Below are positions 5,728 through 31,195 of a stretch of 64,000 nucleotides of DNA, in pieces (position 1 is the first letter of the stretch; the number at the start of each line of letters is the position of its first letter). This stretch comes from an uncultured Gemmatimonadales bacterium. Lineage in GTDB: Bacteria > Gemmatimonadota > Gemmatimonadetes > Longimicrobiales > RSA9. The DNA lies in the NCBI GenBank assembly GCA_963816355.1, contig CAWFKH010000005.1, forward strand, positions 340,074 through 404,073. Reading direction: 5' to 3'. Under the pieces are notes generated by a model that saw only the letters and a list, made by a program, of their open reading frames with translations, was not told the DNA's origin and did no database searches. Made by a program: the position numbers and the translations under genes.

Positions 5728-6306
5728 ATGGAGCGCAGGCACTTCCTGCTGGGACTCTTCTCGCTGGCGCTGCCGACGGGCGGGCTGCTCGAGCGCCTCG
5801 GACGCCTGCCCGGCACGGACGCGGCGGCGGCGCGGCGTGCCACGTCGAGCGCGGCCGGCAGCCGCACGGCGATGCCCCCGCAGCAGGGGATCGCGAAGCT
5901 CGAGAAGTCGGATGGGGAATGGCGCAAGCTCCTGCCGTCCGCGGCGTTCGCCGTCCTCTTCCGCGAGGCGACGGAGCGGCCGGGCACCAGCCCGCTCAAC
6001 GACGAGCACCGTCCCGGCACGTTCATCTGCGCGGCGTGCTACCTGCCGCTCTTCGACGCCGCGACGAAGTTCGACAGCGGCACCGGCTGGCCCAGCTTCT
6101 ACACGCACATCGACGGGCGGCTCGGCTTCAAGAAGGACTACAAGCTGATCGCACCGAGAACGGAGTACCACTGCGCCCGGTGCGGCGGACACCAGGGGCA
6201 CGTCTTCGACGACGGTCCGCCGCCCACCGGCAAGCGCTACTGCAACAACGGCGTCGCGCTGCGCTTCGTGCCCGAGGGCAGGGCGCTGCCGGCGCTGCGC
6301 ACCTGA
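5728..6306 (+). CDS. msrB: peptide-methionine (R)-S-oxide reductase MsrB with Tat signal
   Basis: It has a twin-arginine N-terminus (MERRHFLLGLFSLALP) and the SelR domain with CxxC...CxxC (CAACYLPLF...HCARCGGHQGHVFDDG). Confidence 0.85.
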   Translation: MERRHFLLGLFSLALPTGGLLERLGRLPGTDAAAARRATSSAAGSRTAMPPQQGIAKLEKSDGEWRKLLPSAAFAVLFREATERPGTSPLNDEHRPGTFICAACYLPLFDAATKFDSGTGWPSFYTHIDGRLGFKKDYKLIAPRTEYHCARCGGHQGHVFDDGPPPTGKRYCNNGVALRFVPEGRALPALRT

Positions 6307-6392: not shown

Positions 6393-6908
6393 ATGGCGAA
6401 CAACCCTGAGGGCGGCAAGGAGATCGAGCGGCTCGACCCGCGACCCGTCGACATCGTGCTGCGCGACGGCCGCGAGGTCGAGGGCCGCCTCGCCGTAGGC
6501 AGCGGCCAGACCCTCGTGCGCTACCTCGCCACCCGCCGCATCCTGATCAACCTCACCGACGTGCGCGCCCACTGGTCCGACGACCGCCCGCTCGAGCACC
6601 TCGCCGTCCCGCTCCAGCACATCCGCTGGGTCCGCTCCACCGACGGCCAGATCCCGCTCACGCCGCTCGCCGCCATGCCGATGCTCACCCCCGTCGCCGT
6701 CCACCTCGACGACGGTACCTCCATTCACGCCTTCGTCGACCTCGCCTTCAACGAGCGCTTCAGCGACCACCTCGACATCGCGCGCCCCTTCATCCCGCTC
6801 TTCCGCGCAAGCGTCGGCGGCGAGTGGATCGGCGACGTCGCCCTGAACGCCACCTGCGTCGTCGCCGCCCGCGAGGCGCGTGACGACGAGCCGGCGGAAA
6901 AGGCGTAG
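6393..6908 (+). CDS. hypothetical protein
   Basis: The C-terminal 171 aa of ORF 5448..6908 begin at an ATG preceded by GGGAGG. The upstream part of that ORF overlaps msrB out of frame and is treated as spurious. I recognised no domain. Confidence 0.45.
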   Translation: MANNPEGGKEIERLDPRPVDIVLRDGREVEGRLAVGSGQTLVRYLATRRILINLTDVRAHWSDDRPLEHLAVPLQHIRWVRSTDGQIPLTPLAAMPMLTPVAVHLDDGTSIHAFVDLAFNERFSDHLDIARPFIPLFRASVGGEWIGDVALNATCVVAAREARDDEPAEKA

Positions 6909-7180
6909 CCGGGGCGCGCATCCAGGCGCGGTCAAGCGCCGTGGCGTGGCCCGGCGGCGTGGCGGCGCGGCCCGGCGGCAGGTGCGCCGCGGCGCGGCCC
7001 GCTCGGCCATGAGAATTCCTTCAGCGCGGCCTCGCGCTCCTCGGATCTGGCCCGGGCGCCGCGGAGCGGCCCGCTTGGCCATGGGAATGCCCCGGCGCGC
7101 CGTGCATCATGGCGTGTCGACGGAGCGGCTGGAGCGCCGTCGCGAGGATGACCGCGAGAGCGTTCGGGAGGTCCGATTCG

Positions 7181-8113
7181 ATGCGCGCCGATGTGGAGCA
7201 GCGGGTTCGCGACGTCGCCGCAAGCCAGCACGGGGTGGTCACCCGCAACCAGCTCGTTCGGGCGGGCCTTTCCTCGGCCGCCATCGGTCGCAAGGTGATG
7301 CGCGGGCAGCTGCAGACGCGCCATCGGGGCGTGTATCAGCTGGGGCCGCTCGCGCTTCCCGGCGCCTCCCACATGGCTGCCGTGCTCGCCGGCGGGCCCG
7401 CCGCAACCCTGAGCCACCTTTCCGCAGCGAGCCTCTCCGGGTTGCGCCCGCGGCCGGACGTCCCGGGGCCGATCCACGTCAGCGTTCCGGGAGCGGGCCG
7501 GAGTCGCAGGCCCGGCATACGCTTCCACCGCGTCGCCCTCGCCGACGACGAGCGGACGATCGTCGACGGCATTCCCATCACGGCACCGGGACGCACGCTC
7601 GTGGACATCGCCGGCATGCTGGGCCGGCGCGAGATCGAGCACGCCGTCGCCTGCGCCGAACGGGAACGCCTCATCGATCACGAGCAGCTCGCCGCGCTTC
7701 CGGAGCGCTACCGCAGCCGTCCCGGCATCGGCCTGTTGCGAGAAGTGACGCAGCGGCTCGCGGAGCCGGCGTTCACGCGCTCCGAGGCGGAGAACCGATG
7801 TCTCGAGATGCTGGACGCCGCCCGGATCCCCCGGCCGCACTCCAACGTGCCGATCGGACCCTACGAGCTGGACCACTTCTGGCCCGTGGAGGGGATCGCC
7901 ATCGAGATCGACGGCCGCGCATACCATTCCGCTCGCGGCCGCTTCGAGGGCGATCGCCGCAAGGATGCATGGCTCCGCGCCCGCGGCATCGAGGTGATCC
8001 GCCTCACCTGGAGGCAGATCACGCGCGAAGCGATGCCCACCGCCGTCCAGATCGGTCAGATCCTCGCTCTCGCCCGGGCCCGCAAAGCCGCGACCCCGCG
8101 GGAGGCGTCGTAG
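7181..8113 (+). CDS. DUF559 endonuclease-like domain protein with AbiEi-type N-terminal domain
   Basis: ORF 7109..8113 has an N-terminal wHTH-like AbiEi_4 region (HGVVTRNQLVRAGLS...). Its C-terminus carries the DUF559/Vsr-like fold motifs (FTRSEAENRCLEML...IEIDGRAYH...DRRKDAWLRARGIEVIRL). The internal ATG is at 7181. Confidence 0.75.
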   Translation: MRADVEQRVRDVAASQHGVVTRNQLVRAGLSSAAIGRKVMRGQLQTRHRGVYQLGPLALPGASHMAAVLAGGPAATLSHLSAASLSGLRPRPDVPGPIHVSVPGAGRSRRPGIRFHRVALADDERTIVDGIPITAPGRTLVDIAGMLGRREIEHAVACAERERLIDHEQLAALPERYRSRPGIGLLREVTQRLAEPAFTRSEAENRCLEMLDAARIPRPHSNVPIGPYELDHFWPVEGIAIEIDGRAYHSARGRFEGDRRKDAWLRARGIEVIRLTWRQITREAMPTAVQIGQILALARARKAATPREAS

Positions 8114-27581: not shown

Positions 27582-27676
27582 GCCCCTGTCACGGGTGGTG
27601 CCGCGCCGGGCGGCCGCCTATGTTGGCCGCGCGTGCGACGTCGTACGCGAGCCGTTCCGCCCGACCAGGAGACGCG

Positions 27677-28150
27677 ATGCCCAACCGCACCGCCCGATTC
27701 GACACGACCGAAGGCAGCTTCGCCGTCGAGCTCTTCGAGGAGCGCGCACCGAAGACGACCGGCAACTTCGTCAAGCTCGCCGAGGAGGGCTTCTACGACG
27801 GCACGATCTTCCACCGCGTGATCGACGGCTTCATGATCCAGGGCGGCGACCCGACCGGCACCGGCCGCGGCGGGCCCGGCTACTCCATCCCCGACGAGTT
27901 CCACCCGGAGCTGCGCCACGCCGCCGAGGGCGTGCTCTCCATGGCGAACGCCGGCCCGAACACCGGAGGCTCCCAGTTCTTCGTCACCCTCGCCGCCACG
28001 CCGTGGCTCGACGACCGCCACGCCGTCTTCGGAAGGGTGAGCGAAGGGATGGACGTCGTGCATCGCATCGGGAAGGTGGCGACCGGCCGCGGCGACCGGC
28101 CCGTCGAGGAGGTCCGCATCGAGTCGATCACCGTCGCGCCCGCGCAGTAG
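27677..28150 (+). CDS. peptidyl-prolyl cis-trans isomerase, cyclophilin type
   Basis: It matches the cyclophilin pattern FHRVIDGFMIQGGDPTGTGRGGPGY...SMANAGPNTGGSQFF. The start ATG at 27677 was verified in frame. Confidence 0.9.
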   Translation: MPNRTARFDTTEGSFAVELFEERAPKTTGNFVKLAEEGFYDGTIFHRVIDGFMIQGGDPTGTGRGGPGYSIPDEFHPELRHAAEGVLSMANAGPNTGGSQFFVTLAATPWLDDRHAVFGRVSEGMDVVHRIGKVATGRGDRPVEEVRIESITVAPAQ

Positions 28151-28159
28151 CCGCGCGCT

Positions 28160-29524
28160 CTACAGCTTCACGACGTTCTCCGCCTCCGGTCCCTTGCGCG
28201 CGTCGACCCGCGTGAACTCGACGCGGTCGCCCTCGTCCAGCGTGCGGAAGCCCTCGCCGACGATCGCCGTGTAGTGGACGAAGCAATCGTCACCGCCATC
28301 CTCGGGGGTGACGAAGCCGAACCCCTTCGAGTCGCTGAACCACTTGACCGTTCCGCCGATCCGCGGCCCGGCGGCGGCGGCGGTCGCGGCGTCCGACGCG
28401 GTCTGCCGCACGCGCGGCCCTTCCCCCGCGTCGGATCCCTTCGACGACGCCGGCGCCGATTCCGCTTCGCCGCCCGAGCGCCCGCTATCCGAACGCCCGC
28501 CGCCCGAACGCCCGCCGCCCGAACGCCCGCCGCCCGAACGCCGGCCGCCACCGCGCCCGCCACCGCCCGTGCCATCGCCGCCACCGCGCCCGCCACGGGC
28601 GTCGCCATCGCCACCGTCGGTGCCGCCGCCGCGCCCGCCGCGGGCGCTGCCGGCGCCGGCCATCTCGGGCGACGACGTCGCCTCGATCCACTCCGGGCGC
28701 TGCGCGGCCCGCCGCGCCAGCTCGCCCACCGCGTCGCTCCGGGCGGAGGCGATGATCACCGTCTGGCGCGACGCCGGCAGCGCCGCCAGGACGGGATCGA
28801 GATCGCGGGCGGAGGAGCCGAGGCGATCCGCGTCGTCGACGACGAGCACCTCGACCTCGGTCAGGTCGAGGTCGCCCGAGCCGAGGAGCTCGGCGGCGCG
28901 CGTCGGCGTGGTCACCAGCAGATCGAAGCCCGCGCGCAGGTCGCGGAGCTGACGCTCCGGCGGCACCCCCGCGTGCAGGAGGCCGATCCACAGGTGCGTC
29001 TCGCCGGCGAGGGCCTCCGCTTCAGCGCCCACGGCGGCGACGGCGGCGTCGCCCGGGCAGAGGATCAGCGTGCGCAGCCCCTCCCTCCCGACCTGCCGCT
29101 CCACGACCGGCAGCATGTAGGCGCCGGTCTTGCCGGCGCCGGCGGGCGCGATGACCACGACGTCGTGGCCAGCGCCGATCTGCGGCGTGGCCGCCGACTG
29201 CACCGGCGTCGGCCGCGACCACCCGCGCGCCTCGAGCGCCTCACGCAGCGGCGCTGACGACGTCAGCTCCTCGAAGCTGCGGCGCTGCGGTACGCGCGGC
29301 GCTTCCGACTCCGGCGGCGTCGCGGTCCGCAGCTTCGGCGCCGCCGCCCCGGCCGCGCCGCGCCGCCGCCGGAGGAGCGCATACAGCACGGCCGCGCCCA
29401 CGAAGGCGACGACGACGAGCGTCCAGATCAGCGGCTGCCAGCCGAAACTATCCAAGGGCTCCCTTCCGCTCCCTTCCCAACGGACCGCATGCTCGTAACG
29501 ATCCGCACCTCCGCGAGGCATCAT
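28160..29524 (-). CDS. membrane-anchored DEAD-box helicase domain-1-like / RGG-rich / cold-shock domain protein
   Basis: It has an N-terminal TM helix ([23 protein letters not shown]), then the Q motif, Walker A (AGAGKTGAY), TPTR, VVDDAD and SAR, with no helicase domain 2. A (GGRGG)n linker follows, then a C-terminal CspA-like domain ([31 protein letters not shown]). A TTG at about 29455, preceded by AAGGGAG, is an alternative start. Confidence 0.7.
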
Positions 29525-29677
29525 TCTGGACGGCGCCGACGACGACTGTCAAGCGAGGAGGCCGGCACGCCATCGCGCGCCGGCCTCTCGCATTGTCCCG
29601 GACGTCGGCCCGGGAGCCGATCGGCCGGCGCTACGCCCGGCCGGTCGCGTCGCGGCCACCGAGCCGCGGCGAGCGCC

Positions 29678-29866
29678 TCAGTGGCGCAGCAGGAACCAGG
29701 CACCCACCGGCACCGCGAGCGCGGCCGCGGCGAGACCGGCCGTCTGCGTCCGGCTCAGGTTGTGGTACGCCGTATAGGCGACCGCCCCCTTCACGGGATG
29801 CTTCAACATGAACGTCGCCTTCGGCGCCTTCGTGTATCCGATCAAGGTCCCGATCTTCCTCAACAT
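29678..29866 (-). CDS. hypothetical small membrane protein (62 aa)
   Basis: It sits in a lower-GC stretch, with GGAGG 2-3 nt upstream of the ATG. The sequence MLRKIGTLIGYTKAPKATFMLKHPVKGAVAYTAYHNLSRTQTAGLAAAALAVPVGAWFLLRH has a C-terminal TM segment. Confidence 0.3.
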   Translation of the reverse strand: MLRKIGTLIGYTKAPKATFMLKHPVKGAVAYTAYHNLSRTQTAGLAAAALAVPVGAWFLLRH

Positions 29867-29929
29867 GCGCTATCCTCCCGGTCAACGGACACCAGATTGT
29901 GATGGGATGCAATGCAAGGGACGCGCCGG

Positions 29930-30375
29930 GGGCTCGCCTTCGGCGAGGGAAGCTCGCCTGGCGGCGAAGGAAGCTCGCCTGCGGCGAGGGAAGCCCGCCT
30001 GCGGCGGGGGAAGCCGCCTCCGGCGGGGGCCGGCTGCGCCGGGGAGGCTCGCCTGACGGCGAGGGAAGCTCGCCTCCGGCGGGGGCCGGCTGCGCCGGGG
30101 AGGCTCGCCTGACGGCGAGGGAAGCTCGCCTGCGGCGAGGGCCGGCTGCGCCGGGGAAGCCCGCCTGACGGCGGGGGAAGCCGCCTGCGGCGGGGGCCGG
30201 CTGCGCCGGGGAAGCCCGCCTGGCGGCGGGGGAAGCCCGCCTCCGGCGGGGGCCGGCTGCGCCGGGGAGGCTCGCCTGACGGCGAGGGAAGCCGCCTCCG
30301 GCGGGGGCCGGCTGCGCCGGGGAGGCTCGCCTGACGGCGAGGGAAGCTCGCCTCCGGCGGGGGGCCGCCTGCGGG
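29930..30375. repeat. tandem hairpin-repeat array, A orientation (units GGCGAGGGAAGCTCGCC and the 32-nt nested variant, organised in ~57-bp higher-order repeats x6-7)
   Basis: Read directly. Each unit is a 6-bp stem with a GGAAG loop, and the longer unit nests a CCGGC..GCCGG hairpin. Confidence 0.8.
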
Positions 30376-30384
30376 TCTTTCAGG

Positions 30385-30816
30385 TCAGGGGCGATCCGAG
30401 GAGGCCCGACGTTGCATGGCGCGGCAGTGGTGGACGAGCACTATGCCGAGACGGCGCGCGGCGGCCCGGCACGGGGCGAGCGACTCGGCGGGCTCGATGC
30501 CTTTGATCGCGAGCAGCGCCAATGCGTTCTCCGCTTCGGAGACGGAGCGGCGGGCGATTCGGTAGATGCGTGCCTTTTCCGCCGGCCGATACTCACCGAT
30601 CGCTTCGCCCACGTTCAGGACCGCCGAATCGACCGCCCGATCGAGCTGGTCGCTCAACGCGGGCCACGATCGCCTCACCCGATTGACGATCGGCAACGCC
30701 GCCGCCGCGAATCCCTCGGCCAGCCGCCGCACGGCAAGCCCCTCATACTCAGCGCCCAAACCCTCCTCCTCTCCGTCCGTCATCACAACATCCACTCCCT
30801 GCCCGGCCAGATCCAT
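30385..30816 (-). CDS. four-helix-bundle protein (TIGR02436 / 23S rRNA intervening-sequence protein / Avd-like family)
   Basis: The C-terminal 143 aa of ORF 30385..32376 align to the family consensus (WPALSDQLDRAVDSAVLNVGEAIGEY...KARIYRIARRSVSEAENALALLAIKGI versus FPKEE.YGLTSQIRRSAISIPSNIAEGYGR...EFVHFLYIALGSATELDTQLIIACELGYI). An alternative ATG lies at 30783. Confidence 0.75.
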   Translation of the reverse strand: MDLAGQGVDVVMTDGEEEGLGAEYEGLAVRRLAEGFAAAALPIVNRVRRSWPALSDQLDRAVDSAVLNVGEAIGEYRPAEKARIYRIARRSVSEAENALALLAIKGIEPAESLAPCRAAARRLGIVLVHHCRAMQRRASSDRP

Positions 30817-30837
30817 GTCCCCGTGAGCCCTAACCAA

Positions 30838-31195
30838 GGCGGTTTGCCCCGGCGCAGCCGGCCCCTCGCCGCCAGGCGAGCTTCCCCGGCGCAGCCGGCC
30901 CCTCGCCGAAGGCGAGCTCCCCCGGCGCAGCCGGCCCCTCGCCGAAGGCGAGCTCCCCCTCGCGAAGCGAGCTTCCCTCGCCGAAGGCGAGCTCCCCCGG
31001 CGCAGCCGGCCCCTCGCCGAAGGCGAGCTCCCCCTCGCGAAGCGAGCTTCCCTCGCCGAAGGCGAGCTCCCCCGGCGCAGCCGGCCCCTCGCCGAAGGCG
31101 AGCTTCCCTCGCGAAGCGAGCTTCCCTCGCCGCCAGGCGAGCTTCCCCGGCGCAGCCGGCTTCCCTCGCCGCAGGCGAGCGCTCCGCGCTTGCGC
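30838..31195. repeat. tandem hairpin-repeat array, B orientation (reverse complement of the 29930-30375 array)
   Basis: Units AGGCGAGCTTCCCTCGCC and CCGGCGCAGCCGGCCCCTCGCC are the reverse complements of the A-array units. Confidence 0.8.

Follow-up and report, generated by a model that had tools for sequence, protein, structure and literature searches.

What might a protein do that joins a membrane anchor, only the first half of a DEAD-box RNA helicase and, at its C-terminus, a cold-shock domain (CSD)? The question is raised by an open reading frame (ORF) on the minus strand of a 64,000-nucleotide stretch of DNA from an uncultured Gemmatimonadales bacterium (positions 340,074 to 404,073 of contig CAWFKH010000005.1), which was analysed at its full length and is called the window here; its G+C content is ∼73%. 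An initial annotation of this DNA had noticed the combination and supposed that it might form an ATP-dependent RNA clamp at the membrane. We lean, somewhat beyond even judgement, towards a different reading, in which the protein would be a membrane-tethered RNA-binding protein, acting as chaperone or adaptor, with a pseudo-helicase as its scaffold; it belongs to a small family found so far only in the phylum Gemmatimonadota.

The ORF, of 454 amino acids (aa), occupies 28160–29524 and is intact, as had been annotated. Translation most likely begins 69 nt further downstream, at a TTG codon, and gives a product of 431 residues; this numbering is used unless the longer ORF is named. The gene and the parts of its product are as follows.

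28160–29455, minus strand: coding sequence, 431 aa and stop codon, in the order transmembrane (TM) anchor, RecA1, linker, CSD; the most likely gene model
29372–29449, minus strand: N-terminal transmembrane anchor, residues 3–28 of 431, then RRRR (Kyte–Doolittle, orthologues, AlphaFold2 helix)
29282–29371, minus strand: basic, Pro/Ala-rich disordered tether, residues 29–58 (AlphaFold2 confidence below 50, weak conservation)
28670–29281, minus strand: DEAD-box RecA1-like domain, residues 59–262 (Pfam, AlphaFold2, Foldseek, motif table)
28370–28669, minus strand: disordered linker with a Gly/Arg-rich (RGG/GGRSG) core, residues 263–362 (AlphaFold2, composition)
28163–28369, minus strand: CspA-type cold-shock domain with RNP1 KGFGFV and RNP2 CFVHY, residues 363–431 (Pfam, NCBIfam, AlphaFold2)

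The helicase-like part has the fold of a DEAD-box N-terminal domain. Pfam DEAD (PF00270) matches residues 106–261 of the 454-aa ORF (E = 1.2e-23, profile positions 1–158 of 167), and an AlphaFold2 model built on 16 orthologues gives predicted local distance difference test scores (pLDDT) of about 85–97 over residues ∼60–260. In a Foldseek search against the PDB, isolated DEAD-box N-terminal domains ranked at the top, the best being that of Staphylococcus aureus CshA (6aic; target-normalised template-modelling score 0.93, root mean square deviation 1.4 Å over 200 columns); the corresponding domain of Thermus thermophilus Hera (2gxs) scored 0.91. Of the second RecA domain there is no sign. Pfam gives no Helicase_C (PF00271) match in the 454-aa ORF, the NCBIfam helicase models (RhlE, RhlE1/2, CsdA, DbpA, CshA) match over their first ∼210–215 positions only, and just ∼100 residues separate RecA1 from the CSD. 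When a full-length related helicase was compared by tblastn with the six frames of the 64-kb window, only its residues 20–222 found a match, at 29278–28676, and the RecA2 half found none. Motif VI is absent in all family loci, and no gene encoding RecA2 alone was found in the window or in four annotated neighbourhoods of family members. The absence of domain 2, which the initial annotation had wished to see confirmed by a Pfam search, is thus upheld by that search, by tblastn and by the architecture of the orthologues. A RecA2 hidden behind a frameshift was considered and rejected: the ∼100-aa linker is too short to conceal one, tblastn found none in any frame, and the orthologues agree.

These orthologues came to light in several searches. 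A search of a collection of 5.8 billion proteins returned an identical protein and 15 orthologues of 328–392 aa, all with DEAD and CSD matches and without Helicase_C. When one genome per GTDB species was scanned, the TM–RecA1–CSD architecture appeared in ten loci (L001, L002, L003, L005, L010, L020, L022, L025, L027 and L028), all in Gemmatimonadales, Longimicrobiales or unclassified Gemmatimonadota metagenome-assembled genomes (MAGs), and a profile search of 1.84 billion representatives clustered at 50% identity gave ∼8 full-length family clusters, the family clusters being P0009, P0002, P0121, P0122, P0123, P0125, P0126 and the partial P0133. Together there are about 28 orthologues with this architecture, so that the search for relatives proposed at the outset was fruitful; every one with a named source comes from a Gemmatimonadota MAG, and no cultured isolate is among these sources, the family consisting so far of metagenome-derived sequences only. 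The recurrence of an architecture without domain 2 in ∼27 independent orthologues rules out an assembly artefact as its source. One might have suspected a chimeric assembly, a helicase truncated or put out of frame, or a pseudogene left without function, from the decayed helicase motifs described below and from a repeat-rich linker that could provoke assembly errors; with the same layout in ∼27 independent assemblies from different studies, an intact ORF, a ratio of non-synonymous to synonymous substitution rates (dN/dS) in RecA1 as low as 0.05, a conserved promoter and no remnant of RecA2 in any frame, we regard this explanation as scarcely credible.

One family locus shows a local irregularity of its own: in L010 (5797–7014) the frame loses the CSD after GTVRWF (…RTARGSGSSSRTT…), and a CSD-like ORF overlaps it at 6843–7025. 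This contig probably carries a frameshift or sequencing error.

Neither Pfam nor NCBIfam has a model for the family, NCBI names its members 'DEAD/DEAH box helicase', and a literature search found no paper describing the TM–RecA1–CSD architecture, which bears out the view that it is not a described family. The architecture is therefore undescribed but assembled from well-known parts, and the family, a small one, has to date turned up in Gemmatimonadota alone.

A source for the helicase-like part is found within the same phylum. Many loci of the GTDB-species scan (L004, L006–L009, L011–L019, L021, L023, L024, L026 and L029–L031) match residues ∼60–260 only; their product is a DEAD-box helicase, canonical and compact at ∼415 aa (for example L007, 5980–7236, 418 aa, and L013, 6007–7251, 414 aa), with the motifs AQTGTGKT, PTRELA, TPGRL, DEAD, SAT and HRIGRTGR. 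Its best NCBIfam matches are RhlE and CshA, and it scores under every equivalog cut-off there. This helicase and the family have in common the RecA1 domain, with 47% identity on average, and the signatures LPALERQxxREGLHTLVLCP and DPEWVEA, and the two occur in the same MAGs (L002 with L013, L005 with L007, L028 with L012). A neighbour-joining tree was built from RecA1 (201 columns, 62 sequences, 100 bootstraps). The family was monophyletic in 100/100 replicates, as were the family and the Gemmatimonadota helicase together, while the helicase alone was monophyletic in just 5/100. The family, which lies on longer branches, is therefore nested within the helicase clade. In the rest of their make-up the two differ, the helicase having RecA2 with motif VI (HRIGRTGR) and all motifs in 20/20 sequences, and neither TM segment nor CSD. 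In the simplest history, the RhlE/CshA-like helicase of the phylum was duplicated, and one copy, the source of the RecA1 module, lost RecA2 and gained an anchor and a CSD.

The motifs of this copy agree largely with those first annotated. The Q motif (F61 and GWSRPTPVQ at 78–86), Walker A (APAGAGKT, 103–110), TPTR (in TPTRA, 183–187, motif Ib) and DDAD (207–210, motif II) are all found in the motif table; the 'SAR' assigned to motif III was off by one, the residues aligned with SAT being A-S-A. The protein thus has the RecA1 fold, the Q motif and Walker A of a DEAD-box protein and lacks the catalytic Glu of D-E-A-D, the S-A-T of motif III, the RNA-contact motifs Ia, GG and Ib (PTRELA, GG, TPGR) and the whole second RecA domain (Helicase_C, motifs IV–VI). 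Motif Ia reads PGDAAV and GG reads HAGV; Ib alone survives in part.

Comparison of 20 canonical paralogues with 28 family members shows that this decay is general. The paralogue keeps the Walker-A Lys, DEAD, SAT, PTRELA, AQTGTGKT and TPGRL in 20/20 sequences. In the family, by comparison, the Walker-A Lys is kept in 22/28 (the others having H, H, G, R, R and V), DEAD in 2/28, and SAT and PTRELA in 0/28, and the GG loop is mostly lost. Motif II has become DDAD, DDVD, DETH, DEV[DE], DPID/DPLD, DRAN, DQAE, EDAA, TGAH or HDAD, and in two members, P0125 and P0126, the P-loop Lys is gone and motif II can no longer be recognised, though both are still TM–RecA1–CSD proteins. Nevertheless, the fold is under purifying selection, as judged from a RecA1 dN/dS of 0.05–0.39 (0.05 in the closest pair), with scaffold positions conserved at 85% or more, including a family-specific invariant Trp (LWxG). 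A fold kept under selection together with unconserved catalytic motifs is what characterizes a pseudohelicase, and the family-wide loss of the motifs for ATP and RNA indicates that the conserved function is independent of them. From the missing RecA2 and the decayed motifs we predict that RNA-dependent ATPase and unwinding activities are absent.

A separate change affects the Q motif of family members P0005–P0012, which is PTPIE, with Glu for Gln across the whole subclade. The same replacement was engineered in the Hera Q28E mutant, crystallised with 8-oxo-ADP (PDB 3mwj, 3nbf), and by analogy this subclade might have an altered nucleotide specificity instead of a simple loss.

These observations bear directly on the ATP-dependent clamp, in which RecA1 would bind ATP and, together with the CSD, lock RNA in a nucleotide-dependent manner. 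A DEAD-box clamp needs both RecA domains, which close on ATP and RNA, and its arginine finger lies in motif VI of RecA2. A lone RecA1, without that arginine finger and without the second RNA-binding surface, can be neither a helicase nor an ATP-driven clamp. The proposal does draw some support from this copy, which has the Q motif, the GKT of Walker A, TPxR and the first Asp of motif II, from the retention of the Walker-A Lys in most of the family, and from crystals of isolated DEAD-box N-terminal domains that contain AMP or ADP (PDB titles 2gxs, 3ber, 2oxc). Against it, the domain needed for clamping and hydrolysis, with motifs IV–VI, is absent, the catalytic Glu is Asp here and in other members is either absent or replaced by Pro, Arg or Gln, the RNA-contact motifs Ia and GG have decayed, and the architecture persists in the two members that lack both P-loop Lys and motif II. 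The Gly/Arg-rich linker, moreover, is not family-wide. The clamp proposed in the initial annotation is therefore not borne out, and we consider it improbable.

If RecA2 is missing in cis, it could in principle be supplied in trans, by a separate gene product or by the canonical paralogue, to give an active split helicase at the membrane. The two proteins do coexist in the three pairs of loci listed above, and they share a clade-specific surface signature. Yet no ORF for RecA2 alone is present in the window or in the four annotated neighbourhoods, and the interdomain ATP site is formed by motifs I, II and III, precisely those that have decayed. We judge such a split helicase to be very unlikely.

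Selection acts most strongly elsewhere in the protein. The CSD, with dN/dS of 0.04–0.35, is its most constrained part, and its description as a canonical CspA-type domain proved correct. Pfam CSD (PF00313) matches residues 391–453 of the 454-aa ORF with 92 bits (E = 2.1e-26, profile positions 3–65 of 66), RNP1 and RNP2 are intact, and the AlphaFold2 model has a five-strand barrel at residues 366–430 with pLDDT about 90, so that the full-length OB-fold barrel and both RNP motifs of the CspA type are present. At residues W372, F373, K377, G378, G380, F381, F392, V393 and H394, conservation across the family is 96% or more. The NCBIfam models CspE, CspC and CspA match the C-terminus over their full length; the score with CspE, 98.3 bits, is below the equivalog cut-off of 120. 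Like the free cold-shock proteins (Csps) CspA, CspE and CspB, then, the C-terminal 66 residues of the family protein fit the CSD and CspE models full length, but free Csps are soluble proteins of ∼70 aa, whereas here the CSD is the end of a 431-aa protein with a predicted membrane anchor and is not a small free-standing Csp equivalog.

The anchor itself, a single N-terminal helix as first annotated, consists of 26 uncharged residues (Kyte–Doolittle 19-mer mean 2.49) preceded by two residues, and AlphaFold2 places a helix at 7–34 with pLDDT ∼90. No Lys or Arg precedes it and six follow within 15 residues. In 16/16 of the orthologues first found, an uncharged stretch of 20–27 residues (2.45–3.07) is followed by 3–7 Lys/Arg within 15 residues, and in most of these only ∼2 residues stand ahead of it. 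A signal peptide in place of an anchor was rejected, there being no positive n-region and the positive charges coming after the hydrophobic stretch. The positive-inside rule holds that the basic flank of a TM helix lies on the cytoplasmic side. Since the charges follow the helix, the predicted topology is N-out/C-in, with RecA1 and the CSD in the cytoplasm; a hydrophobic helix of at least about 20 residues with its positive flank, as in a single-pass anchor of this orientation, is present in the sequence, and AlphaFold2 predicts the helix. The tether that follows has a pLDDT below 50 at residues 34–55, is poorly conserved and has dN/dS of 0.24–0.94. Across the TM segment dN/dS is 0.3–1.4, its hydrophobic property being kept and its sequence not, as expected of a plain anchor.

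This pattern also speaks to a regulated Csp, sequestered at the membrane, in which the TM helix would keep an RNA chaperone or antiterminator inactive or would sense the state of the membrane, such as cold-induced rigidity, until proteolysis or a conformational change released or activated it. Proteins with a CSD are classically tied to cold adaptation, the disordered tethers are long, and the extracytoplasmic part amounts to ∼2 residues, so that the TM helix would be the only possible membrane-facing sensor. The poor conservation of that helix, however, speaks against a specific sensing role, no protease or sensor gene is conserved nearby, and the purifying selection on the RecA1 fold would be left unexplained. 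We hold this to be unlikely, and prefer a membrane-tethered RNA-binding protein in which the helix would serve as a plain anchor.

Could the anchor be an artefact of a wrongly chosen start codon, as the initial annotation had feared? The in-frame candidates are ATG 29524, ATG 29521, TTG 29455 and two GTGs within the TM segment; the next is a GTG within the Q motif. With no in-frame ATG, GTG or TTG between the TM segment and the Q motif, any protein with a full RecA1 also has the TM segment, and the objection fails. Two further elements bear on the choice among these codons.

29523–29552, minus strand: sigma-70-like promoter, TTGACA, 18 nt, CAGAAT (promoter scan, conservation in L001 and L002)
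29459–29465, minus strand: Shine–Dalgarno-like AAGGGAG, 3 nt upstream of the TTG start (read from the sequence)

The promoter matched 10/12 positions in the scan, with 0.0 expected in shuffles, and its CTTGACA and AGAAT are invariant, at equal spacing, in the two closest relatives, L001 and L002, whose upstream DNA has otherwise diverged. From its position, transcription is predicted to start near 29516, and the gene is read as having its own promoter. The promoter's –10 element and ATG 29524/29521 overlap, evidence against a start at that ATG, and no Shine–Dalgarno-like element accompanies ATG 29524. This overlap, the AAGGGAG, the N-termini of the orthologues, which line up at TTG 29455 with M-[DE]-S-F-x-W, and the database entry P0001, a 100% identical protein that begins at this codon, make TTG 29455 the most likely start, rather than ATG 29524. 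No intrinsic terminator was found.

Between RecA1 and the CSD lies the Gly/Arg-rich linker, the one part that sets this copy apart from its relatives. Its DNA is itself repetitive.

28468–28612, no strand assigned: DNA tandem repeats encoding the RG-rich repeats (Tandem Repeats Finder)

Gly makes up 37% of the linker, which is about 100–108 aa long and contains 13 RG/GR dipeptides; its pLDDT is below 50 for residues 265–347. A Gly/Arg-rich linker is therefore present as annotated, although its core extends over ∼60 aa instead of about 70 and it is not a family feature: the linkers of orthologues, 17–50 aa long, are acidic, Pro-rich or mildly basic, never RG-rich, and the candidate role of an RGG linker as a mark of the family was accordingly rejected, this being the only copy to have one. 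At 28468–28549 a 15-nt tandem repeat occurs in 5.5 copies with 88% matches, next to arrays of 12/33 nt. Encoded by a 15-nt repeat and absent from orthologues, the RGG linker thus appears to be a recent repeat expansion of this lineage alone. Similar RG-rich tails are found at the C-termini of several outgroup helicases, and by analogy the linker plausibly adds non-specific RNA affinity.

The surroundings of the gene are of little help in assigning a pathway. Downstream and convergent lies a cyclophilin gene (27620–28150). Directly upstream on the same strand is a 62-aa ORF (29678–29866, minus) with a hydrophobic C-terminus and no Pfam match; it occupies the same position in L001 and L002 (66–69% identity) and has also been called as a gene in L084, and the more distant family loci lack it. 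Only L001 and L002, the closest relatives, share both this ORF and a divergent saccharopine-dehydrogenase-like gene, and in other clades different, unrelated genes adjoin the family locus (GH15 and a deacetylase, an iron-transport protein, a DUF5117 protein, an S9 peptidase). Membership in a defence system was tried and rejected, PADLOC yielding only weak, generic helicase and CSD matches, and Rfam gave 0 matches in the window at gathering thresholds.

Further upstream, two G+C-rich intergenic tandem arrays, at 29923–30373 (56-nt unit, 8 copies, readable as 111 or 167 nt) and 30847–31180 (36/75-nt unit, ∼9 or 4.5 copies), flank a small ORF at ∼30385–30840 (minus) that matches PF05635, the 23S rRNA-intervening-sequence protein or four-helix-bundle family (E = 8e-9, 36.1 bits against a cut-off of 33.8). 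Both arrays produce long spurious ORFs on both strands.

How does this architecture compare with known systems? RNase Y, with its N-terminal TM helix, and the membrane-bound RNase E degradosome are membrane-anchored proteins of RNA metabolism, and in them, as predicted here, an N-terminal anchor puts an RNA module on the cytoplasmic face. The analogy is one of layout only; the family has no sequence or fold relationship to either and no nuclease domain.

Complete DEAD-box helicases fused to a CSD exist in other bacteria (P0140, P0148 and P0156), with the CSD at either end. P0140 (CSD–DEAD–Helicase_C) and P0148 (DEAD–Helicase_C–CSD) resemble the family in having a helicase module and a CSD in one polypeptide, but they lack a TM anchor and are complete in both RecA domains and in every motif. 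The RecA1 tree places them among the outgroups, outside the Gemmatimonadota clade, and they are therefore independent fusions. An unfused version of the pairing is seen in a Syntrophorhabdales MAG (L034), where a free-standing csp gene (5986–6195) lies directly upstream of a DEAD-box helicase gene (6560–7894) on the same strand. Partnership between separate proteins of these kinds is on record: CspB is given as an interaction partner of Bacillus subtilis CshB (PMC6178137, citing Hunger 2006), and AtRH7 interacts with AtCSP3 (PMC4846089).

For the fate of the helicase module, the nearest parallel is yeast Utp25, a pseudohelicase in which the DEAD-box fold is retained and essential and the helicase motifs are degenerate or dispensable (PMC9539457). 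In both cases the fold would be kept and catalysis lost, as far as sequence comparison tells for the family. Utp25, however, is eukaryotic and soluble, has both RecA-like domains and belongs to the small-subunit processome, whereas the family is bacterial, single-domained, anchored and fused to a CSD.

Taken as a membrane-tethered RNA-binding protein, the product of this gene may work as follows. By the positive-inside rule, the anchor would hold both RecA1 and the CSD at the cytoplasmic side of the membrane. There the CSD would be the working part and would do, at the membrane, what free Csp proteins do: bind single-stranded RNA and keep it from folding. RecA1 would serve as a pseudo-helicase scaffold or docking module; in copies with an intact Q motif and GKT, such as this one, it may still bind adenine nucleotide, though alone it would be unable to hydrolyse ATP efficiently or to unwind RNA. 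The RGG linker of this copy, grown from its 15-nt repeat, would strengthen non-specific contacts with RNA, and the likely role of the whole would be the chaperoning or capture of RNA at the membrane, such as might serve membrane-associated translation or RNA turnover.

Several points weigh against this reading. Localisation, topology, RNA binding and nucleotide binding are, for all members, predictions. Most members, this copy included, keep the GKT P-loop, the aromatic residue of the Q motif and the first Asp of motif II, and nucleotide binding, hence some ATP-dependent behaviour, may be possible for this copy. No conserved operon or gene neighbourhood was found across the family loci compared, so none points to a pathway. 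The RecA1 tree is a neighbour-joining tree on 201 columns, not a maximum-likelihood one, and the dN/dS values are approximate, dS being near 1 in a genome of 73% G+C.

A bolder version goes beyond the preferred reading of a tethered RNA-binding protein, and we put it forward tentatively, as a possibility that falls somewhat short of even. The DEAD-box RecA1 would have been reused as a non-catalytic scaffold that holds a CSD on the inner face of the membrane, making this the first bacterial family of single-RecA-domain pseudo-helicases and giving the cell a dedicated site of RNA chaperoning or capture, at which partners of the parental helicase might possibly dock.

The family is small and confined to one phylum, its domains are very familiar, and its cellular role is read from sequence comparison. 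Within these limits, the annotation of its members as 'DEAD/DEAH box helicase' is almost certainly wrong as to function. The family is a clear example from nature of the passage from helicase to pseudo-enzyme, one RecA domain having been lost and the motifs of the other having drifted while its fold was selected, and the survival of the unchanged parental helicase in the same genomes makes a direct comparison of both possible. Gemmatimonadota are common in soil and almost unstudied; if the protein is indeed an RNA chaperone at the membrane, it would be a new component in the spatial organisation of bacterial RNA metabolism.

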